Part shown: positions 25,503-42,600 of the stretch, in pieces
Position numbering within the stretch: the stretch's first letter is position 1
Layout of the letters: every line of letters begins with the position of its first letter
Assembly: GCA_050273025.1 (NCBI GenBank)
Contig: CP158635.1
Location: 2,976,001 to 3,040,000 of the forward strand
Source: Cenococcum geophilum
Lineage: Eukaryota
Direction: 5' to 3'
Length of the DNA stretch: 64,000 nucleotides
Translations under genes and position numbers: made by a program
The notes under the pieces: model-generated
The model's database searches: none
Told to the model about the DNA's origin: nothing
Seen by the model: the letters and a program-made list of their open reading frames with translations, nothing else

Positions 25503-26055
25503 ATATAATAAAATAACTTATTTAATATATAACTAATAAACTATATAAATATCAAAAACTCTTTATTTATATAATATATATATATATATATATATAATAT
25601 AGGTATATAATAGCTTTATTAATAGTTTTATTAATAGTTTTATATTTTATTAAAAAAGTACTTTTTAACTTAACTTTAAATATATAGTTATTATAATATT
25701 TTATAATATTCTTACATAAAATTATAATTTAAGTACTAAATAAGCTATATATTAGATTTTATATTAATAGCTGTTACAGTTATTAAATTATAGGTGGTGT
25801 AAAAAGGTGTATTTTGCCAAATTTTGGTGGGGAAAACCGTGCACGAGCCGGTCGCGTGCACGAGCTGATCCCCCACGTTAGTCAGCGCAGAGCCTCAATT
25901 TAAAATTTCACAACTTTGGTAAAATACCCCCCACAGCCCCGCCAATATGGCTTTATATTTTAGAAATAAAGTTTTATTTTATAGCTTTAGAATAAAGCTA
26001 TAAAATTAGCTATTATTTATATAAATTAAAGCTACGTTGGTAAAGTTATAAGGGG
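25503..26055. repeat. Extremely AT-rich relic, probably a hyper-RIPped repeat, with a GC-rich island at ~25795-25950
   Basis: Abrupt compositional shift; ends and TSD not resolvable. Confidence 0.45.
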
Positions 26056-26887
26056 GTATAATGTAGGACCCTAGGAAGCGAGACACCCCCCTAAGCGAGA
26101 CACTCTTAGCCTAACTTATAACTTTAATAACTTTAGTAATATTATTCTTAAATAAAATATAAAATATATTTATATAAACTACTATATTAGTAAAATAATA
26201 CTTAGGCTAAAAAATAAAAATATTATATATTTTTTACTGCAATAAAATTATTTTAAAAAGGCTATATATATTATATTATATTATAGTAATTTCTAAACTT
26301 AAGGTTACATATTAATATTTATATATATATTAATTATATTTTTTTAATATATTATAATAGTTTGTTAATTACAAATATAATAATAACATCTATATAAAAA
26401 ATTATTATTATATATATAAATATATTTTAGAAAAAATTATCATAATTGTTTTTATTATGATTATAGTTTAATTGTTTTTATATATAATTTTTTAAACATT
26501 TTTTATTTTTATAATATATATATTAAGTAAGATTAGTTAATAAAAGCATGGTTTATAAAAACTACTAATTTTTATTATATTTTTATAGATTAAATATTAA
26601 ATAAAGTTTTATTTTTATAACGTTACTTATATATTATTATAACATTATATAAGTATTTTAAATATTTTAAATATTTTAAATATTTTATAAATATTATTAT
26701 TTATATACCTATAATAGTAATATAACACTATTATTATTATCATTATTTATTGTTTATATATATTGTTGTTATTTAAAAATACTATTTTATTAATATTTAA
26801 TACTTATTATACTATTACACTATTTTATAATTACTTAAATTCTTTATAATTTATATTATATATATATATATATTACACTATTATTAT

Positions 26888-29800
26888 TATTATTCATTAC
26901 TTAACGTCCGATTTGGATCCCTATTAGGCCTACGCGGACTACTCCTTATATATATATGGGGAGAAAACTCTATTTAAGAAAACCCTATAATCTATCTCCC
27001 CGCCTTTTGGGACTCGCCTATAAGGCGCCTATGAGGCGCCTACAAGTTACCTATGGTGCTCTACTACCTTACTTTTTAACCTTCTTAGGAACCACTGCTG
27101 CCGTAATAAGCCTACGGACGCGCTAGTATCGCAAACTTTACTCTATCACTGTAGAGTTATTAGAGGGCGCCCGTTACTCGCCCCCCCTACCCTCTATTGC
27201 CATTTCCTTTATAACCCAGAACTGGTTTAGTATATTTTAGCTAATAAGCCACTAAGTAACCGCCTTAAGGCCTTTTTATATTAAGAGTAGTATATTATAG
27301 TTCTCTATGCCAGCTACTAAGAGTATTGCTTCTTAGTTAGTGCATAAGGGGCATAACAGTATTATATATTTTGGTGTTTATCTTAGCCAGCCACATTCGC
27401 ATCTCGGGCTACCTACTAGGACACCCACCTAGTAGAGCCAGTCTTTTAGTCCTATTATTCCTATTCTTAAGAGTGTTGCTATTATATTTTCTACCTTCGT
27501 TAGGCCTTCTCGGAGCCCTAGAGTGTTTACCCCCTATAGCGTTAACCATGCTATAGCTTAGGTTCCTCTTGCCTTAGTCAGCCTCTATACCTTTAACTCC
27601 TATACGCCTCTCTAGCGTTGGTCCAGCCAGTATTATATTGCGGTAGATAGTTTCCTAGCATTCTTTTATACTCTACTTTTGCTCCTTTCTCTCTCTTGCT
27701 ATTATCTTTGCTAGCCTCTTACGCGTTTCCCTTTCTCCTCTATATAGGCCTGGGCCCTAAAGCAGCACCATTTTTCTTCTACTTTCTTTACCTGTTTCTC
27801 TAATATATCTTCCCTACTTTGGGGTTATTGGTTTATTCTCCTATAGGGCGCCCTAGGGTTCCTCCATAGTTTATTTAGGCGTGTTTTAATATACTTTATA
27901 ATATTAGAGTTACATTCGTTTTGCGCCCTTTATATTATAGCGGCTTCAATATATAGTTATAAGAGGGGAATATTAGCTTCCTTTTTAAGCAGTGCTGTAG
28001 CCGTTCGCTTATATCCGCCTATTATACTCCAGAGGTAGGCTGTTTAAACCTTTTAGAGTAGTTTAAGGAGCGATTTAGGGGGGCCTTTCTCAGATTCTCC
28101 AATGGCCTAAATACTGGACCTATACGTTATGGTTAGCCGGACAACTGCTATATATAGTAGGCGTGACCTCTAAAAGTATGGACCCTATATAGAATTAACA
28201 ATCCTAGATAATATAATATACTATACTTAGCCCTTATAGGCCGCTTACGCCGTATATACGCTCTACTAGAGCTTACTATCTACCTATACTCCTAATACCC
28301 TTAAACCCTAAACTAGTTAACCCCTAAAGCCTTAGATGCGGATTATATACTAAAGATCTGTAGATTAGTTGCGTTTTCTTATAAAGTAAATTAGCTAGTA
28401 TTTCTCTAGTAAAAATTAGACTCTATATTATCTTGCCTATTCTATATAGGTGTTATAAGCTTTCTCTAGTGTTCTGCAATTTTCTGCGGCTGTTGGCCTG
28501 TATATAATTAGGTTTGTATTGTTAACAAAGCCTATCCCCTAGGTCGCCCCTTCCTTAAAGGAGTTAAGCAGGTTGCTTATAAAGAAAAGGAAGAGTATAG
28601 GCGAGAGGGGTAATCCTTATGGTATTCCTGTTATAACTGCGATAGGGGGGCTCTAGTATCCGCTAAAGACTAGTAATATTTCTTTCTAACCTATAAACCC
28701 TTAAACAAATTGTATAATCTATTCTAGAAAGCCTTTTACCCTAAGGATGTATAGGAGACGCTTATAGGGTATGTTATTATAGGCGCCGCTAATATCTAGG
28801 CTAAGCATTAATACTATAAAGTCCCTTCGCATCGCCTATGCGGATTTAATGGTGGCAGCGAGTAGCGTAAGTGCTAATAGTGTTAAGCGGTTTTTTCTTG
28901 CCCCCATTTGGCTTTATAGTAGTAGGTTATATTCCTTAGCCGTGTCTACTATATGGTCCGCTATTACCTTTTCTAAGATCTTGCTAAGGGTGTTTTCTAA
29001 GGCAATAGGGCGGTAGCTTCCTAGGATTAAGTAATCTGCTTTACCTTCTTTCTATAAAATAACCGTTGTTATAGCTCTTCTAAGTTGCGGGTAGTAGCCT
29101 ATAGCAAAGTATACCCTAGCTATATCTGTAAGCTAGGGTGCTATAAATAGTCTACATATTTTTAAGGCCTTATTTAGAATCCCATCTAGTCCTAGTGCTA
29201 TATTATTTAAAAGGCGGCTAATAGTTTTAGCCATTTCCTCTGTTGTTATATCGCTGTTAACCCTTAGGCAAGTTACTGGTGTTTTACCCGTAATATTGCT
29301 AAGGTCTACTAGAGCTGGTTAGGGGAAGAACCTTTCTATAAGGATCTTTACCTTCTTATCGTTATTATTAGTAGCCTGTAATTCCCCTGCTCTTTGTAGG
29401 GGTAGTAAGTATAGGTCTTCTACTAGGCGCCCTACCTTTTTCTTTACCCATTTTGCTATAGCCCAAAGGCCCTTATTATAGGGGAGGCTTGGGTTAAAAG
29501 TATGCTCATTTATAAACCGTCTCCAGTTATTCCTTACTTCTTTCTTTAGGGTATTCTTTAACTGGTTTCTCGTGTCTTTATATTGTCTCTCGTCTTTAGG
29601 GTTGTGGCTACTTATATATTTCCTTCTTGCTCATCGTTAGCTAGCAATAAGAACCGCGCATTATGCGGACCATGCGTATCGCGCGTAGGGGCCTAGTTTT
29701 GAGACTAGGCAATACTCTTCTAGCCCGTTTTTAATCGCTGCCTGGATCCTTTCTAGTCTTTGGTCAATTTCCTTAGGGGTGGCTAATAAGCCTCGCTCGT

Positions 29801-30159: not shown

Positions 30160-30351
30160 ATTACACTATTATTATGCTATTATTATAATTTTTTATAATT
30201 ATAAATATTATTACGCTATCGTTTTGCGGTAAAAAATATTAATAATAATTATAAGTATAAGTATAATATATAAGTATATTTTATAAATTTATACTTACTT
30301 AAATATTAACTAAAATTTTATATTAATAGTATTATTATATATTAATTTTAT

Positions 30352-32161
30352 TGTCGGTATTACCTAAGTGCACTTGATTGGCCTATTAACTGATAAATTA
30401 ATTCTTATCTAATAGGTATTAAAAGCAGAGGATTGTAAGGATCGCGGTGCCTAAGTAGGGGGCTAATGAGTTACTATAAGGGTAACTAATTAGAGACGTA
30501 ACTACGTAACCTCTGTCTATATATTCCTGTCTATATATTCCAACACTAGCAGTTCTTTCTTTATACTTATAGCGTTATAGAAAGGCAGTAAGGCAGTAAG
30601 GTGGTAAGGTAGTAAGGCAGCAAGGTAGCAAGGTATCGGTTTAGCTAAAGGTAAAAGGCAGCACGAGGTAATGGTGGTACTGTAGGCGGAGCAGCAGTTA
30701 TCGATTGTATTACTGTAGGTGGAGCAGTAGAAGTTAATTGTGGTGCTATAGGAAGGCAGCAAGGTATTGGTTTAGCTGTAGGTAAAAGCAGTAAAAGTCT
30801 GTTTGGGTGGTAGTACGGTACTAGCGGCGGTAGTGATAGTGGTTAAGTATAGAGCTTGTCTATTAGTTAGTCGGTTAATTATAGGCATATAGGCACGATT
30901 ATTTGGTCAGTAGATCGCAGGCATATAGGCACAATTATTTAGTTAGTAGATCGTAGGCGTGTCGGCGCGATTAGTATCGTAATAGCAGGCATAGCGGCGC
31001 TATTAGTTTATCGATAGTATGTGGCAGTACGGTGCTAGCGCAGGGTCGGTTCCGTAGGTAAATTGGCATAGAGTCTTATTATAGGGTTGGTTCGCAGGCA
31101 TATTGGCATAGCAGCCGCAGATACTGGCAGTTCTTTTCTTTATGCGTAAAACCACCAATATATAGACTCTGTTAATGTGGTATTCGTAGCTTATAAAGGC
31201 CGTAGGAGGGAAAGGGACGCGCTGGCGTTTGGGGCGCGTTGTTGACGTGATTTTCGACGTGGCAGATCTGCAAGGAAGGTAGTAGACGGTGTTGGGGTTG
31301 TAGGGGGTGCTGCTAATGCTGCTGGGTTATGGGATGCTGCTAACGCTACTGGGTTGTTGGGTATTGGGTGCTGCTAACGCTGCTAGGTTATGGGATGCTG
31401 CTATAACGCTGCTGGGTTGTTGGGTATTTGGTGCTGCTAACGCTGCTAGGTTGCTATAACGCTAGAGTACTATACGAGGCTGTTAGGTATTGATTTTTAT
31501 GCTATAACGCGTACTAGGTAATGGTTTGCTGCTAGGTTGTGTTGTTATACTAGGGTACTGCGTAAAGCTGTTGGGTAGTTAGATACTGCGCGAGGCTGTT
31601 AGGTTGCTGTAACGCTGGATGCTATATAAGCTGGTATGCTGTATAAGTGCTGCTAAGGTAGCTGCTGAGGTAGCTGCTAATAGGGTACTGCCCGAGGGCT
31701 GTTAGGTGTTAGGTGCTATTGAAAAGCTAGGGGTACTGGCACTTAGTGAAGAGGTTGTACTAGGTATTAATTTACGTGCTGTAGAATGTCTTATGCGTTA
31801 CGTATTTGTGTATATTCTAAGCTGGCTAGAATTAGATGCTGCTGGAGCTGCTAGGTACTAGTTTTACTGCTAGGTACTGGAATACTGCTTATGATTAAAT
31901 GAAGCTGCTGGGGCGGCAGTGAACCTTGTTGCTCTATAGCCAACCGGTGAGGTTGACTATTAATTAATGTCGGTATTACCTAAGTGCACTTAATTGGCCT
32001 ATTAACTGATGAATTGATTCTTATCTAATAGGTATCGAAAGTAGAGGATTGTAAGGATCGCGGTGCCTAAGTAGGGGGCTGATAAGTCACTATAAGGGTG
32101 ACTAATTAGAGACGTAACTATATAACCTCTGTCCATATATTCCTGTCTATATATTCCGACA
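30352..32161. mobile_element. Non-autonomous LTR retroelement (TRIM/LARD-like), 1.8 kb
   Basis: 194-bp LTRs at 30352-30545 and 31968-32161 with TGTCGG..CC(G/A)ACA ends; TSD TTTAT; internal region is low-complexity repeats with no gag/pol motif seen. Confidence 0.88.
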
Positions 32162-33471
32162 TTTATATATAGAAATAATTTATTATATATGTTTAAATAT
32201 ATTAAAAATATAAAAAGTATAAAAATATAAACTTTTAAGTAGTAAATAGTTTATTTATTACTAATTTTAGTATAAACTTAGCATATTTATTAAATTTTAA
32301 ATATATATATTATTTTATTATTTTATTTTATATATTTATTTTAAATATATTAAATTATTATATTGCAAAGTTTTTTTATTAAATTATTTGTTAAGGCGGT
32401 GTTATTTAAAGATAAAGAGCGTCTCGCTTGGGGGGGTGTCTCGCTTTTTAGGGTCCTACGTTATACGGTAGCGGGGATGAATAGATAGGACGGCACGTCC
32501 TAATCGAATACCCCAACTTTAAGGATCTGAGGAAAGCAGTCTGGCCGTTTAATAGCTAACCTTAGAGCTATAAATCGATCTTAAACCTAGTATGGTTAGT
32601 AAAGAAAGCAGTATAATATATGGTACAAATAGGCCTCTTAGGGCAGTTTCTGGAGGCCAGGAATAGACTTAAAGTGACTAACTAAGTCTCTTAGTGGTAG
32701 ATACGTTATATGCGACATTGGCGGAAGACGGATAGTATTAAAGCAAGAACTCTAGGCCCTGTAAAATAGGCCTGGCTCTAATATACGGTATGGAACGGAG
32801 GTAATTTGGGCACTTACTACTTTTTAATTATTTGATTTTGATTATCTCTTTTGTATAGGAACTTACCCTGCTTACATATGTCTTTATAATTGTATTACGA
32901 TAGCGTTCTTTTCTAGTTCCCTTGTATTTTAGATATTTGCTTCTCTCCTGGGCACTATATACCTATAGCACGTGGTAGATAGGCGGACGAGGGCCTTACA
33001 GAATCACTGCTGTAGGTAAGACGGGTGATTACCTAGGATCTACCTCTGTAAAATAGAAGACCCGGCATAGCGCCCTTAGGGCAGCTAAAACGGTGTATAA
33101 TTTAAAAAAAAAAACGTTATACGGTATATAGTTAAATGGTATAATTTTGTAGCTGCCGCGATATATTTAACCATCCAGTTAAATAGAAAAGCTATTAGAA
33201 TTTAATAGAGCTGTTATTAAGGAATTCTTTTAGGTATAAAAGGCAGATATAAGTAATATAAGCGCGGTAGGCATTTGATTTGTATGGTAAGATGTTCTAC
33301 CCCATACTGGCTCGAGCCTCGTTCCGGAAAATTCCTGCGTTATACTAAAATTAATCGTCTTTAAAAAGGAACGATTCGTGTATCGGTTTTATCGTCTTAA
33401 TTCCAGAACAAATGCTTTATTCCGGAAAAGATCTTTAAAAGATTAGGCTAATTATAAGGCGGTATAGCAGC

Positions 33472-36400
33472 CAGCGCTGCCAACAATTAAATATCCTAAT
33501 TAATTGGCGGGATATTTAATTGATTGACGCACGGGCTATATTTGATTGAAGCTAGCCTAATTGACGGCTAATTTAATTGAACTTCTAATCAATTATTTGG
33601 CTAGGGGGTTGTCCTAGCAACGTGCCGCGATACAGTGGCAGAAAGAACAAAAGGTAAGATATTAAGCTCATTAATTGCAAGAATTTACTAGAATTCGCTT
33701 TAATTTATAAGATCTACCTTTAGCCAGTGCCTCTAACACTTACTAGCCTCTATAACCTCTGCTCCTAAGTAATTTCGCTTATTTGTAATAAGCCTTTTAG
33801 CCGCTAAAAACACGCGTTTTACCTTACTACTTATTGCTAGTATTAAGAATATGTTAAATGCCATACGTGTAAGGATAGGAAAGTTAGTTTAATGCTCCTT
33901 CTACTATATAAGCGGGTCCTTAATTAATAGAAGCCGGCAATTAAAAGACCTTAGATAGGTATTAAGCTCCAGACTATCCATATCCTTCTTCTTCTACTTA
34001 TAATACTTCCGTAATAGGTAATTAACTAAGAATTCGTCGTATGCAAGGTGGGAAGATTTTGCATTATTTAGCTAATTCTTAAAGTTAAAGGCGGAATTAA
34101 CATTAGGAACCTTTTTATAATAACTTAGGAAAAGGTCTTTAAATGCCTTCCTTGCGGTCTTAACCCAACTTGGATGCTCTGCCTACTTATCCTTAAAGTA
34201 CTCAAATCGCCGTATAGGGTAAAGGACAATAGCTATAACGTAAAGAGGTGAGAAATCTATTAGCTTAAAGTACTTCTTAAGCTTTAGCTAGGCCGTGTTA
34301 ATACTAGTATTATAATACTTAGTTCGTTCAAAATCGGCATTTAACTTATTAATCTCCTTCTGCGCCTTCTTAAGAACATTATATATAAAGTTTATACTAT
34401 GGAGAACTCTCCATAGTATGCCATATTGTCCCTCTTTACTAACTTTCTATGCTTAATCTTCCTCTTATTCACAAAGCTCCTAAAAAGGAACTAGTATTTT
34501 TTACCACCTAATTAGGTCCTCCTAATCAGCCTCTTATAGAAAGTCTTGTTAAAGGTTATAGGCACCCTACTAGTTTAGAAGTTTCTAGCGGGTTTAGTAA
34601 AGGGTAATAGCAGTACGTAGTTTAATTGCTAGCATTTATTAATATAATAGCTAATATAAATTATAACAACTTAGACGAATAGCTCTGAACCAAGCTTTAA
34701 ATAATTGCTATCTTTATAATACTAAATTAAAGAGAAGAAGAAGGGGTTGTTAGGACCAATATAAACAAATATATACAGCTAACTACTAAGGCTTATTATG
34801 CAGTATGCCTAAGTTATATAGGTTGCTATAAGCGCTACTATAGGAATATACGGCATAAGTTGCCAGTTAGCAACTTATAGTGACTTATTACGGCCGCAAA
34901 GAGCCTAGAAATAGCGCGTAGTATGATACCCCTAGTAGTAACCAAGAATGGTAATATGCAATATAATAGCAATATGCGGCATAATGGCAATATACAGCAT
35001 AATAGCAATATGTAGCATATTGCGGCGATATGGCGGCAATGTGGCAAGTAATGTGCTCTAATACCGTTACATAAATAAAAGAGACAGGACATACCACGAG
35101 AAATTATAGCCTTAGTTAAATTCCACCGAATTCCTCTATCTGTAAAAAGCTGGTAATATTAGAAGTCTTCCTCCTAGTACTCTCTAAATGTTGTCATCCT
35201 TATTAAATTATAGTTAATATAGATATAGATATTATAGAGCTTACTAATTAGGCCTATACTATTCCAATTTTTAAATACTTTATCGTATAAAGCGCCAGCT
35301 AGCTTCCGCTTAAGCTTATTAACGCCCTTACTAAATAGTAAGGCCTTAATAACTAGGTTAATAATATAACTAAGACATCGCAGGCGTAAATAGCTAACAT
35401 TAATATTAAACCGAGTTGCTAGCTCCTTTAGCATAGTATCGTTATCTATAGCATTATCTATTATAAACGCCCTAAGATTCTAGCTAATCTTATAGTTATT
35501 AATAACATTAGCTATAATTTCTGCAATTAATTGGCCAGATTTTGCTCCATTTACTTTCCGGAAACCCAAAAGATAGTACTTAAGCTTATACTCCTTACTA
35601 ATAAAGTAAACGCATATCGCCATATACTCGTTACAATTTAGAAAGCACCAGCCATTAAGTAAGAGGTTGATTTTACTTTTTATATATAAAATCTTGTCCT
35701 TAATCTATATCTTCCTTAATTAAAATATATCTATTACCTAGCCCCTAATTATAGTATGTAAGGATAGAAGGATTGCTTTAATCTTAGGTTAGCTAGAAAT
35801 AAGAAGCTGTCGAAATTATATATTTTAAATAGTCGCAAAGCTAAGGTTATAGGTAATGATTATGTTAATAAGGTCCTTTTTATATTTAAGATCGTTAAAT
35901 GGCGGTAGAAGAAGACCACGTTGTGCAAAGCCTACGTAAGTAGAACTTTGTCCTTATAACAAGATAAAATTAAAATCCCCGCTGGCTCCAGTTATTCCAT
36001 AGGTCTTTTTTAAATAAGATGTAATTAATGAGGTAGAAACTGCATTAAAGAGCTAGGTACTATAAGCCTTTTTTTAATAGCAGCGCTTATAGAGCCAGAG
36101 CTTCTCGTAGTCCTTTGCTTATAAATTAGCTCCATACTAATAAACCCAAAAAACCTTTACCTTTGTATTTAGTACCCGTTTATTATATAAGCGATATTAT
36201 ATATCCTAAAGAAGCTGGCCGCGGTATTTAAGAGTATTAAATTAAATGTTAAAAGTGTAGGTATACGAGGTCTGAGTAGGCTAAGATGCTTCTAAGGTAG
36301 TCTTAAGTAAATTAGAATTAGATAATTAAGAAATTTCGTTAATATCCGAACTTATATTATCCTTAGAAGGTAATAAAGTCATTATATAAGATAATGGTAA

Positions 36401-36587
36401 GCAATCTAAAAATTTTAAAGAAACCGGATAAACTATTAACCAAGGCCATTAATTAATCATTAATTATTTAACCTCGGTTTAATTATTTAATTGGCTTAAT
36501 TAATATCTAATCTCGTATTTAATTGATTGGACTAACGCTCGGACTAATTAAACTTCCAATCAAATCTGTTAATTGTTAGCAGCACTG
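33472..36587 (-). mobile_element. hAT DNA transposon
   Basis: TIR cag(c/t)gctgc(c/t)aacaattaa; 8-bp TSD ATAGCAGC; subterminal aattgattg-type repeats. Confidence 0.93.
33715..36382 (-). pseudogene. hAT transposase with a 466-bp intron (34629-35094)
   Basis: BED-like N-terminus, RLRCLSYIINL (CxxH), IRWNLT..IISR|AIKLR, dimerisation domain FPILTRMAFNIFLILAISSKVKRVFLAA. Confidence 0.9.
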
Positions 36588-37773
36588 ATAGCAGCGCAAG
36601 GCTTATTATAAATCGTAAAGCTCTTTAAAATATATTATACTAATAAGTTTAGTTTTCTTCCCCTCTTAATCTAATTGGTAAATCGTTATCGTATAATGTC
36701 CAGAATAGGCTTAAATTACCCTAACCATGCGTATACGATGTCGCTAAAACGGCTAGTTGATAAGCCTAAGTTTAGTAGTTGGTTTATATTTTATAACTAA
36801 GTGTAAGGTATTTTATAGAGCTCTCGTAGAAGCCTCCTAAGGTGTTAATTTTCTTATTGCGATTACCCGATTAGGACTAGCGCAGGGGCTCTAAAAATTA
36901 AACTTCGCAAGCTTTATCATCTGTTAAATTTTCTTATTAGTCCTTCCTTATTTACCACCTCTATATATAACTTAATTAGATCCTTAATAAGATGCACATT
37001 TTATCTGTAAGTTCTAAATATATATTAACTTAATTGCTAGCTTAAATCTAACACCAGAAATAGCAATATTAACCTCCGCAACTACCTCCGCAACCACCTC
37101 CGCACGTAATGCAATTGCCTCTCCTTCTACTGCAGATAACTTCTATAACGTCTCTTACGCTATTTCTGCCTTCTTAGTTATAGTAAAGCCTGCCTTTACT
37201 AAGTATCTAGAAGAAACTAGAGTTAACTTAATAAAGCGCGTCACCCAGTCTAAATACGATAATCTTATTTCCTAGCTTATAGATCTAAATTGTATAGCCC
37301 GCTTATAGAAAGAACGCAACGCTAAATTAAAGGCTAAGCAACGGTGATATATAAGAGAGGATATTTACCTAGAGCTGTAAGGTCTTTAGAGGCGCCTAAT
37401 AGGGCCTAATAAGTGGGCCTTAAAGGTGGTTCCTGAGCTGGATATTTACAATATAATTATAAGGAAGTATAGCGATGTTAAATACTTAGGATAGAAGAAG
37501 ACTTACTATATAATTACGACCGAGTATTACGGTATAAGATCTATTAAAGTTAAATAGCTGCTTAAGCACTGTTGAATTTATAAGGAGTAAGTATTACTTT
37601 TAAAAAAAATCTTAGTTATATACGCATGCTAATATTCTTATAGAAAGGCTTCCTCTACTATAAGGCCTCCACTTAATATAATTGTCTCTTTAGCTCCCTT
37701 TAATCGCATTTAAGGCGATCTAATTAATATGCGCTTTAAGCCTGATGGCGAATATAAATGGATCCTATAGATA

Positions 37774-39615
37774 ACGTTTTATATAAGCGAGTGAGCTATA
37801 TAAGCGAGTGAGCCACCCTACTAAGAAATCACGACGCGTTAACTATTAACTACCATGAAATAACAACACAACCCTCAATCGAGCTATTAAGAAGGCAGGA
37901 TAGCCCTAGCTATCTCAGCTATTAAGTAAAACCAATTCCATAGCGTGCGATATGCTGCAGTAACTTACGATATCTCTCGAGCGACCCTTCAACGACGACG
38001 CGGTGGAACTCTCTCACGACGCGATTGCGAGGCCAATTTAAAGAAGCTCGCTAAGCTAGAAGAGGAGGCTATTACTGAGTATATTCTCGACCTAGATTTA
38101 CGAGGATTCGCGCCTTAGGTCATCCATGTAAGAGAAATGGCTAATTAACTACTCGCTGCGCGCTCTACTAGCTCTGCTAGTAAGGTCGGCATTAACTGGC
38201 TATATAACTACATACGGAGGACGCCTAAGATTAAATTATAATATAATTGGAAGTACGACTATCAGCAAGCTCTATGCGAGGATCCTAGGATTATCAAGCC
38301 CTGGTTTAACCTCGTGCGCAATTTTAAGGCGGAGTATAGCATATCTAACGGAGACACGTATAATTTTGATAAAGCTGGATTTTAGATAGGTGTTACAGCA
38401 ACTGCTAAAGTTATTACAGGCTCTGAGCGACGTATCCAGCCTAAAACTGTACAGCCAGGCAATTAAAAATGGGTTATAGTAATCTAGGGTGTAAATGCTC
38501 TAGGCTGGCCAATTCCACCGTTTATTATATTTGCTGGAAAGCACCACTATACTACCTAATTCTATAATATACTACAAGAATAGGCTATCGCGCTAAGCGA
38601 GAATGGCTGGACGACTAATCAGCTGGGTATTAAATGGCTAGAGTACTTTAATAGGCATACGCAGCATCGTACAGTAGGCACATATCGCCTACTAGTAATT
38701 GACGGTTATAAGAGCCATTAATCTCTTGAATTTTAACAGCTCTGCAAGCAGAAGAATATTCTTACGCTCTGCATGCCAGTATACGCGTTATATCTACTAC
38801 AGCTACTAGATATAGGCTACTTTACGCCTCTAAAGCGCGCGTATAGATAGTAGGTTGATAACCTAGTTCGCAACTATATCTTCCACGTTACAAAGCTTAA
38901 ATTTCTACCAGCATTTAAAGCAGCCTATAGTAACTCTATTACTAAGAGTAATATCCGTGTAAGATTTTAAGGTGTAGGCCTAGTCCCATTTGATCTAGAG
39001 GCTATACTCTTAAAGCTAGATATTAAGCTTTAAACGCCTATACCTCCTATAAAGGTTGCTCTATGGGAACCTAAAATACCTAGCAACGTTACTAAACTAG
39101 GCAGTTAAACAGCTCTACTACGTAGCCGAATTCAAAATCACCAGAATAGTTCACCTAGCTTAATGGTAGACTAGCTAAACCAGCTGTCTAAAGGTGCTGA
39201 GAAGATAATGCATAAAGCCACCCTAATGCGCGTATAGATAGCTAGCCTACAAAAAGCTAATGAGGCTCTATCGCAGCGTAAAAAGCGTAAAAAAAAGCGC
39301 TTATAAAAATAAGAGGTTCTTATAGTGGCAGAGGGTCTAGATTTAGTAGCTTAAGCTGATAAGCAGATAGAGGGGGAGACGCGTAAGGGCAAGCGGCGTA
39401 AAAGTGGGAACGCTTCACAGCAGAGGCGCTGTAGGCGCTGTAGGGAGACTGGACATAATTTAAGAACGTATAAATAGGCTAATAGTTAGTCTATCTAGCT
39501 GCTAGTAATTTATTATAGCGATAGATAGTAGTAGGTAGCTATTAGCTTTCAAGGTAGTTGAGTCTTAGTGGGGTGGCTCACTTGCTTATGTGGCTCACTC
39601 GCTTGTGTAAAACGT
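37774..39615 (+). mobile_element. Fot1/pogo-like DNA transposon, full length (1842 bp)
   Basis: TIR acgtttta.a.aagcgagtgagc.a.ataagc.agtgagccaccc; TA TSD; removing it restores the integrase frame. Confidence 0.95.
37855..39490 (+). pseudogene. Fot1/pogo transposase (HTH, CENP-B-type HTH, DDE, C-terminal zinc knuckle)
   Basis: EGRIALAI...YNFDKAGF*IG (NFDE.GF)...SENGWTTN...RLLVIDGYKSH...LQLLDIGYFTPLK...RRCRRCRETGHN. Confidence 0.93.
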
Positions 39616-42600
39616 TACGCAATTACTTTAGTAAATACTATACCCTCTACCCTCTTAAGCAGAAGACTGCTGAGGAAGTCGCTGCTGCCGTATTATAATG
39701 GATATATTACTACAGTATTTACCCGCGTATTTGGTAGAGTAATAACGGTATAAAGTTTAAAGGCGCCCTTCTTATATTACTTCGTCGCTATAGAGTAAAA
39801 GTTATTAACAGCTGCCTACACTACCCTTAATTGTAAGGCCTAGTAGAGCAGGCTAATAGCTTTATAAAGAAGAAGCTTTATATAGTAAAGCGACTCTTAG
39901 GAACTTCGCGATAGGTAATAGCTTGCCTAATTATCGCGGCCTTAATTAATTGCACGTACCACGAATTAATTAGCTGCATGCCTTTTCGCTATCTATATAG
40001 AAGAGATCCTTAGGCTTTTGCTTTAGTGGCGTCTGCTCTAAGGGCCATGGTAGAGCCTCTATTTAATACTAAAGTCTTTAAAGCCGAGAATGAGGATCTA
40101 GATAGTAATAAGGAAGTTTTAGGCCCTTTATTAGAAGAGAATAGTAATAGGCGAGAGGCTGCTAAACAGAAGCGCAATAAGGAGGATAATCGCTCTATTG
40201 CTTTAAGCGCCTTTACTGCTTCTAATAAGGATCGCGATGATATTTCTAATATAGAAGATAATAGTGATTAGCTCTTAACCTCGGATAAATCTTCTAATAA
40301 GGAAGATAAGGATTTGAATAATAGTAGCCTTCTAGATTTAGGAACTACCTCTATAGGCAATTGCAATCGGTTTAAAGAGGACTATAATTTACCTAATAGA
40401 TTATAAAGGTAAGAGACTCCTCCGAATTATACTCTATCTAATGACGATCGCCTCTCTCTTAATTACTTACCAATCTTAATTTGAACTCGTTAAATTCAAT
40501 TATTAGGATCAAGTAGATTTAGGCAGCCTCTACCTTTACTAAAAGGCTTTCTTATACTAAGTTAAGAGGCCAGTATACGGGAGGCGATTAAGATAATGGA
40601 TAGAGAGGCCGAAGCCTCGGCGGTAGTAAGATCTAAACCTACCGTAAATCTACATCGTATAGTTAAGAGAGCTCTATAATCTATTTAGTAGTAAGAGCAA
40701 TTGTATTTAGATAACTGGATTAAAGATCTAAATAATCTTTACTATATCCCTAGAGGCTACTTTATAGATGATTTTGCGGTTTAAATTAAAGCTTTATAAT
40801 TACAGCTCTATCGTAAAGCTAGTGGAGCCGGTGTTTTACTAGTAGATCTTTAAGAGTATTACAATGTGGTTATACCTGCTTTTAGGCATAAGTTAAGTCG
40901 GGTAATTAAGAACTCTAGTAATCCTATTTACGCCATTCTACTATAGCTAGAGCTTAAGCGGCAGGTATTAAAGAAGCTTAAAGAGCGCTAAAAGGAACTA
41001 CAGCTGTAGAGGTGTTTAGTAGAGTCGGACTCTATTTACGATATATCGGATATTTATAAGAGAGTTTAATAGCGATTAGCTCACTCTCGCGACTAGATAA
41101 AGAAGAAGTACGGTATACAGCACTCTATTACTACATTTAGTGTAGGCGACTTAGTCCTTTTTCTAATTCCTAAAAAGCTTTAAAAGGCTACTAAGATCTT
41201 TTATATACCTAGCTGTATCTACAAGATCCAAAATTAAGGCTACTATAAGATTTATACTCAATACGGAATTATAAAAGAGCCCTTTTTTAGTAACGAGCTT
41301 ATTAAACTAGGAGAGACTTATAACGCTTAAATTCCTATAAGCGTTAATAAGATTATACTACTTTTAAAAGTAGTAAAAGCTTACCTAACTACTGCATGGC
41401 CTACTAGCTGTACGTATAAATAAGGATACAGTAATTATTAATATAGTTATTGAAAAGGAAATATAGAGTATTCTATATACTGCTATAGAGGGAAATACTA
41501 TATAAATTAACTAATAGAGGACTCTATAGAGCCTTCTGCGAGAGGCTATAGAAGGCTTACTAGTACTTAGCTTAGCCCTTAATTAAAGCAAGCCTAATAG
41601 GAGACCTTATTGTAAAGCCCTATACTACCTTAATTAATAGTAGCAAATAAAGAAGGCAATTAATTAAGCCTACTTTAAAGGCTGCGTAAGGTAAAGGAAA
41701 GGAAAACTATAGAACAAGTAAGGTTAGCGTAGTTAGGGGAAATCTAAATTATAATCGCGCTAAACCTAATTAGGTAATTAGTCTACGGCCGGTAGAACCT
41801 TAGAGGGCCTGGTTTTTAAGAGATCTTAGTAAGATTAGAGCTTTATAAGATTTTTAATTTTTGGTATTAGGGAACGTAATCGATTACCCCTAACCTAATT
41901 AGCTTCTACTACTTATAGGCTTTATCTATAACGCGGAAAAGCTTTTAAATATACTTATTAATTGCAGTGTAATCTAGTTTAGATGGAATTTAATAGTATT
42001 ATAGTGGTTAGGGGGGGAGTAGTTAAATTTAATCTCTAAAGCCTTCTAAAATCTTAGTAGAAAATTAAGATCTTATACTTTTGTGCTAAATATCGCGATT
42101 ATGCTCTACTAGATGTTTAATTATAATATGCAAGATATATTACTACATATTTTACACCTAAAATTAACTAAATTATATATTTACCATTATTTGCAACTAT
42201 CTACTATACCATATTTTTTAAATCTGCCTGTAGAAATGGCCAAAAAAAGGCTTTGTATAGCTTTAAAAGTTTAATATAGTATTAAATCTTTTCCGGAATG
42301 AAGTAATTGTTCTGGAATTAAGACGATAAAACCGATATACGATTTGTTCCTCTTTAAAGACGATCTGTTCCGGTATAAAGCAGAAATAATCCGGAACGAG
42401 CCATGTGCCGGTATAGGGCAGAATATAAGATCACCTAAATTCGATGCGTTGTGGGCGGGGCTCGCTTAATCGGATTTTCGCAATACTTTCGCAAAGCACA
42501 GTAGGACGCGAAAGAGCTGTATCGCCCCCCACCAAAATATGTAAGAGGGGCAATTCTTTTGATTTTAACCACCTATAATGCATTAACTGCCTACTATAAG

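Follow-up and report, generated by a model that had tools for sequence, protein, structure and literature searches.

In the window, the 64,000-nucleotide stretch of Cenococcum geophilum DNA analysed here (GenBank assembly GCA_050273025.1, contig CP158635.1, positions 2,976,001 to 3,040,000), sequence inspection and comparison of the terminal repeats delimit an element at 33293-42425 (Table 1). It is a RIP-inactivated DNA transposon with TIRs, broken by a hAT and a pogo element. The preliminary description reported inverted termini of ~140 bp starting with TGT, and the two 140-bp arms (33293-33432 and 42286-42425) indeed match as inverted repeats at 115 of 140 positions. The termini of this copy read TGTTCT... 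on the left and ...AGAATA on the right, the latter being ACA altered by a RIP-type change; the RIP indices of the region are 1.5-1.6 (TpA/ApT) and 0.53-0.65 ((CpA+TpG)/(ApC+GpT)). Upstream of the element lies a 198-nt direct repeat (30348-30545 and 31964-32161, 1616 bp apart, 92% identity), and the end of another high-copy repeat (32900-33114, 40 scored matches) lies a short distance to its left. A 1-kb stretch of the window at 26001-27000 has a GC content of 15%.

Table 1. Features of the element and its nested insertions, in window coordinates.
Feature	Position	Strand	Remarks
Left TSD, TAAGA	33288..33292	.	exact copy of right flank
Left TIR, 140 bp, begins TGTTC	33293..33432	+	
Nested hAT transposon, RIP-damaged	33472..36587	-	Pfam Dimer_Tnp_hAT, E 6e-10; L002 lacks it
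Exon 1: Ser/Thr-rich N-terminus, HHCC zinc finger	37066..37586	+	
Intron, 57 nt, GT-AG spliceosomal, phase 2	37587..37643	+	predicted from conserved signals
Exon 2, first part	37644..37773	+	Asn at 37726 in place of the first catalytic Asp
Nested pogo/Fot1-type Tc1-mariner element	37774..39615	+	Pfam DDE_1, E 8e-21; HTH_Tnp_Tc5
Exon 2, rest: acidic linker, insert, SH3-like domain, CXC tail, basic tail	39618..41747	+	
In-frame insert, ~230 aa, limits approximate	40413..41100	+	close relatives of this family only
3' region, no coding signal	41748..42285	.	few transversions between subfamilies
Right TIR, 140 bp	42286..42425	-	
Right TSD, TAAGA	42426..42430	.	exact copy of left flank

The hAT transposon is flanked by an 8-bp TSD, ATAGCAGC (33464-33471 and 36588-36595), and the pogo element by a TA duplication (37772-37773 and 39616-39617). 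Excising 33472-36595 and 37774-39617 in silico leaves 4165 bp. Natural copies (L002, L004, L005 and L007; 4.15-4.19 kb) prove that this excision is correct: in them the three remaining pieces follow one another in order, joined without either insert, and the 4.2-kb element previously reconstructed by removing two nested TEs is thus found uninterrupted at other loci. Across the genome, uninterrupted copies span 4.15-4.24 kb.

The element carries a single gene (37066-41747) of ~926 codons with one 57-nt intron. Its spliceosomal signals, GTAAGT...CTAAY...YAG, are kept in 29 aligned rows (two of them second views of a copy), in agreement with the intron first proposed; intron length varies across subfamilies, and subfamily indels concentrate within it. 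Exon 1 starts with ATA in the window copy and with ATG in 13 of 33 copies. The second catalytic Asp position lies at 39741 and the catalytic Glu at 39846, a DD35E spacing, while the Cys-rich tail of the preliminary description corresponds to a CXC tail at 41406-41510, followed by a basic tail and the stop codon at 41745-41747. The encoded protein combines an HHCC finger, a DD35E integrase core, an SH3-like domain and a CXC tail, without RT. The integrase motifs named at the outset are present in the window copy, though RIP-damaged, and the absence of gag, RT, RNase H and LTRs agrees with Pfam searches of read-through proteins, where rve (E 5.6e-6) and a weak Integrase_H2C2 were the sole matches; the rve score falls below the curated cut-off because RIP damaged the sequence. 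Database proteins P0140 and P0019 match the gene tail. An earlier transposase stop near 41570, where all 34 of 34 rows have a stop, was rejected because both proteins read through to the stop at 41745 and RIP can fix stops in every copy.

Both catalytic aspartates are Asn in the window copy; over 28 copies the first is kept in one, the second in three and the Glu in 25. Of the 50 matches to the core protein that were scored within the genome, every one contains stops and none is an intact copy. RIP does not make transversions, and selection was measured as transversion excess at four-fold sites in the gene's frame. The excess is 4.7x in the core (p 2e-7), 2.0x in the C-terminal domain (p 0.03) and 1.5x in exon 1 (p 0.03), and is not significant in the linker; the ORF has thus been under purifying selection.

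A search of the 178-Mb genome (7 contigs) gave at least 57 matches to the 3' part of the element, at least 44 to the 5' part and 123 to the terminal motif, compared with 15 for a reversed control. In other copies, as the preliminary description had anticipated, the gene is again enclosed by these TIRs, and the TSDs differ. We assembled 33 left-right end pairs, partly from 100 listed terminal-motif matches and leaving unpaired ends aside. Exact TSDs of 4 bp flank 17 pairs and of 5 bp nine; a further four (4 bp) and one (5 bp) contain a single transition, and two pairs have no TSD, so that 31/33 carry 4 or 5 bp. Shuffled pairings match by chance in 12/1056 (4 bp) and 2/1056 (5 bp) cases. The 5-bp TAAGA duplication reported earlier is exact at the window copy, but 4 bp is the commoner length family-wide (21/33 vs 10/33 end pairs). 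Two of the 4-bp cases, L124 and L126, have flanks that differ by transitions only, and are probably one insertion, later duplicated. TATA occurs in none of the 31 TSDs. The copies end in TGTTC, and TAT end variants are RIP-type changes.

By transversion distance, 11 copies fall into three subfamilies, with at most 1.3% inside a subfamily and 5-10% from one to another. Each has its own deletion derivative of 1.5-1.8 kb, in which ~0.7-0.8 kb remain at the left end and 0.9-1.0 kb at the right; two 0.6-kb elements have little in common beyond their TIRs. The motif TWCCGGAA occurs at four sites per TIR in less-mutated copies and at eight sites in L044, every one inside the TIRs; in a subfamily-C derivative, TTCNNGAA occurs 10 times vs 0.4 expected. 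The subfamily-A deletion in L044 (201-1900) fuses the first ~55 codons of the gene in frame to the last ~70; L042 lacks this fusion, which may be due to chance. In two full-length copies, L004 (G000:C5:15395383-15399534) and L005 (C5:13350209-13354380), the right TIR carries left-TIR sequence over its outer ~40 bp, which suggests conversion between both ends. A tangled cluster of family copies (G000:C7:9785825-9809968; L019, L007 and L033) shares a 4-bp TSD at its outer ends; inside it, one left end lies directly against a right end in inverted orientation.

Gypsy and copia elements of the genome (L086-L088, L102 and L103) have frames of 1054-1404 codons without a stop, so some of its retrotransposons escaped RIP. 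Neither an excision footprint nor an empty site was seen; in the element's own genome, the repeat match of the flank stops ~180 bp short of the element. Beyond the assembly, part of the stretch is contained in 20 of 24 listed public sequencing runs, with no RNA run listed as containing it; one flankless locus matched among metagenome contigs, and viral contigs gave three weak matches (26% identity).

Searching 1.84 billion representative proteins yielded 4305 matches, the best 150 of which were listed, and an intact homologue used as query returned 105 proteins. The named sources are Metarhizium, Pseudogymnoascus, Scytalidium, Oidiodendron, Cudoniella and Lasallia, followed by rotifers, and intact homologues are present in several Pezizomycotina classes. 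A single Metarhizium majus strain contributes several of the 10 members of one 90% cluster; one Metarhizium homologue has been automatically named 'SCAN domain-containing protein 3'. None of the 72 homologues scanned contains RT or RNase H. Among the longer proteins, the best match lacks RT (E 2.5e-32) and is followed by four RT-linked matches at 27-30% identity. GPY/F was found in 1/20 fungal-type proteins vs 4/5 gypsy controls, and YPYY in 0/25 proteins of a set that holds no positive control for this motif.

We built a tree of 95 rows and 220 columns, with rows hand-picked from the search matches, none of them a catalogued Ginger1, Ginger2, TDD or Polinton sequence. With this sampling the query falls within an 81-row RT-less clade (support 100/98), apart from 11 gypsy-type and three copia rows that include the genome's own; in line with the first interpretation, the integrase does not group with RT-linked gypsy pol. 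Its own branch is long, with a composition biased by RIP. Fungal-type proteins form a branch of 43 rows (85/78; 96 in an earlier quick tree), and the RT-less clade also holds insect, rotifer and snail proteins, including a moth protein with Pfam Znf_SCAND3. Core motifs and the CXC tail are common to its fungal and animal members. For the intact homologue P0009, a model with pLDDT 71 has PFV and Ty3 integrases as its best structural matches; yeast Fob1 is not among the best 60 of 119 solved-structure matches. L148, a contig of 3.2 kb assigned to a bacterial MAG, contains an intact ~800-aa homologue bounded by TIRs, TGTTCC...GGAACA, with TTCNNGAA at four sites, all within the TIRs (3/200 shuffles reach four). 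This contig has no RIP signature and no TSD, and we infer that it is misbinned fungal DNA.

The transposase of the window family is enlarged by the in-frame insert: ~430 aa separate its catalytic Glu and SH3-like motif, vs 151-359 (median 189) in 32 intact homologues. The insert has no stops in 199 codons and a four-fold-site transversion excess of 1.75x (p 0.007), and among stored proteins it is matched by two close fragments only. Structure prediction gave a pLDDT of 45 and no predictable fold; the insert has no match among solved structures, and P0110, a natural fragment of the insert, had no usable Atlas match. The intact homologue in L148 has its own unrelated-looking insert at the same linker (1740-2030), so the linker seems to accept lineage-specific domains. 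Downstream of the gene, the 3' region is retained in all deletion derivatives examined. Its first part (41748-42050) is non-coding, yet as transversion-poor as the coding C-terminus, and is kept in derivatives of all three subfamilies. A second gene on the minus strand (~41555-41986, few fixed stops) is not supported, having no Pfam match and a four-fold ratio of 0.72 (p 0.8).

Ginger elements are DNA-transposon relatives of retroviral and gypsy integrases. Ginger2 was defined by Bao, Kapitonov and Jurka in 2010 (PMC2836005), where the sole fungal member in the accessible part of the paper is a Malassezia vestige without TIRs. The traits given there are TGTNR ends, TIRs of 45-297 bp, a length of 2.7-6.7 kb and TSDs of 4 bp in animals and 5 bp in TDD-4/5. 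As far as this account extends, the fungal family resembles Ginger2/Tdd in having one integrase-type transposase with an H2C2 finger and a DDE core, no GPY/F or YPYY, TGT...ACA ends, many copies with 140-bp TIRs, a length of 4.2 kb and a 4- or 5-bp TSD. Llorens 2012 (PMC3575427), in the part available, placed SCAND3/KRBA2 integrases among insect GINGER2, with Fob1 near Ginger2; this placement, together with the moth Znf_SCAND3 protein, links our clade indirectly to Ginger2. The fungal family shares the RT-less clade with SCAND3/KRBA2 and insect GINGER2 through such Znf_SCAND3 proteins. It differs from SCAND3/KRBA2, as there described, in lacking SCAN, KRAB and hAT domains, in being a mobile element with TIRs where those are host genes, and in having a fungal host. 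Ginger2/TDD-like, the label first proposed, remains the best one, set in an RT-less clade with SCAND3-like animal proteins and not with gypsy.

Other integrase-type systems fit less well. Ginger1 likewise has TGT ends, TIRs of 40-270 bp, introns and H2C2 plus DDE (PMC2836005, accessible part), but the fungal family lacks its YPYY, GPY/F, OTU and Ulp1, and its TSD is not specific to CCGG/CCGT. For the N-terminal, core and SH3-like domains, PFV and Ty3 integrases are nearest among solved proteins in both sequence and fold; in contrast, they are made as part of a pol polyprotein, have cDNA with LTR ends as their substrate and lack a CXC tail. The direct LTRs, gag, RT, RNase H and gypsy-clade integrase of a Ty3/gypsy LTR retrotransposon are all absent here. 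Polinton/Maverick elements are described, in the parts of PMC6839031 and PMC2836005 available, as 15-20 kb long with pPolB and ATPase, a 6-bp TSD, AG..TC ends and no H2C2, whereas the fungal family has 4.2 kb, one gene, a 4/5-bp TSD and an HHCC finger. Nor does it share the 6-bp TSD, the TA..TA ends or the lack of HHCC of IS3EU/GingerRoot.

It has been shown that TIRs delimit a unit carrying an integrase gene with an intron, and that this unit, like derivatives without the gene, has inserted repeatedly and duplicated 4 or 5 bp of target. We consider it very probable that it was a once-autonomous Ginger2-like DNA transposon with an integrase-type transposase, later killed by RIP and interrupted by the hAT and pogo elements. 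This reading is supported by the TSDs of 31/33 end pairs, the uninterrupted copies, the derivatives in three subfamilies and the 4.7x excess in the core, as well as by the lack of RT in all 72 homologues, the 100/98 clade, the likeness of P0009 to PFV and Ty3 and the TGTTCC TIRs of L148; the intron's retention, together with the absence of RT, points to a DNA intermediate. Weighing against it are the missing footprints and empty sites, the stops in every scored core match, the lack of a TSD at L148 and its place in a bacterial MAG, the 85/78 support of the fungal branch with the long, RIP-biased query branch, a tree free of catalogued Ginger and Polinton rows, and ends that depart from TGTNR. 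Integrases cleave after a terminal CA and then carry out strand transfer with a stagger. By this chemistry, a ~926-aa transposase translated from spliced mRNA would free the CA-3' ends and insert them into the target at positions staggered by 4 or 5 bases. Judging from the anatomy of the TIRs, it would bind their repeated TTC-NN-GAA palindromes, possibly through the CXC tail. Full-length copies and derivatives would be mobilised alike, presumably by cut-and-paste excision. The three subfamilies may each have spread in a burst before RIP destroyed the copies, with the window copy additionally hit by the hAT and pogo elements.

Several traits of the family depart from published Ginger2, among them the ~230-aa insert of the transposase, and a separate fungal superfamily of integrase-type DNA transposons, resembling Ginger2 without belonging to it, is an unlikely alternative that draws on the others. 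The fifth end base is C (TGTTC, also in L148), where TGTNR is published; TSDs of 4 and 5 bp occur within one family; the targets have 52% GC (vs 35% for the window), unlike the AT-rich RTATAY targets of Nematostella Ginger2 families (PMC2836005, accessible part); and the fungal rows form their own branch. That branch is weak, however, and lies inside the well-supported clade with insect, rotifer and snail proteins, whose core motifs and CXC tail it shares, one of them bearing Znf_SCAND3. The available text of PMC10045372 gives 4 or 5 bp for the Ginger2 TSD and mixed lengths within IS481EU families, so mixed lengths are not unique to the fungal family. The family works as Ginger2 does and most likely belongs to its radiation; we file it as Ginger2-like because the TGTNR and AT-rich target traits fail and the tree, without catalogued Ginger rows, is an indirect test.

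A second alternative concerns the route of transposition. IS3 transposition goes through a circle pathway, and a similar copy-out/paste-in route, in which one cleaved end attaches to the opposite one and a circle is copied out of a donor that stays in place, seems rather improbable for this family. Ginger enzymes are kin to those of IS3/IS481, having TG..CA ends and 3-5-bp TSDs in common, and their excision step is stated to be unknown in the accessible part of PMC2836005; the lack of a footprint here would fit as well, but the loci read (non-systematically) hold no abutted end-to-end junction, and copy numbers are modest by the terminal-motif count. A gypsy LTR-retrotransposon remnant trapped between two unrelated inverted repeats, to which the rve-type domain and the retroelement integrases among the best solved matches might point, is highly improbable, and is refuted by the recurrence of this gene between these TIRs at many loci whose TSDs differ and by the genome's own gypsy integrases branching elsewhere, besides the intron and the absence of GPY/F in 19/20 fungal-type proteins.

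The novelty of the Ginger2-like family is more limited than first suggested, since fungal 'Ginger' elements are already in print. Muszewska 2017 (PMC5751038) counted 6,648 rve-defined 'Ginger' in fungi, including Dikarya, when Repbase held one, and a 'DNA/Ginger-2' label from RepeatModeler was reported for Metarhizium brunneum V275 (PMC11457142); the latter may represent the same clade as P0009. These too are integrase-type DNA transposons in Dikarya, but are given as an rve count or an automatic label, with no TIR, TSD, gene structure or tree in the parts of the papers available. Masked 'Ginger' matches elsewhere total only 141 bp (PMC5982816) and 54 bp (PMC5484541); the accessible texts of PMC6839031, a bioRxiv DDE survey, PMC12130899 and PMC4455052 add no fungal description, and in PMC6660238, PMC8445621 and PMC10853768 'Ginger' is an author's name. 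In the literature, Repbase/Dfam and most subscription papers aside, we found no curated ascomycete Ginger family with a TIR/TSD description. Elements of this type are known in animals and slime moulds; for fungi, the sources consulted gave only automatic labels or fragments.

The window copy itself is dead, and it is the family and the intact relatives that make the finding useful. As the rve domain is common to gypsy fragments, a family whose TIRs, TSDs, derivatives and gene structure have been demonstrated provides a true reference, which would correct proteins now automatically named SCAND3 or 'RNase H-like'. The 4- and 5-bp duplications made by one enzyme family also bear on how integrases set their stagger. 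Tentatively, the element could be the first end-to-end example of a Pezizomycotina-wide integrase-type lineage forming its own group beside Ginger1 and Ginger2, marked by TGTTC ends, TTC-NN-GAA palindromes in the TIRs, a CXC tail and a loose 4/5-base stagger. If so, how an integrase excises a TIR element could be tested directly in culturable fungi, Metarhizium for example, that carry intact multi-copy members.
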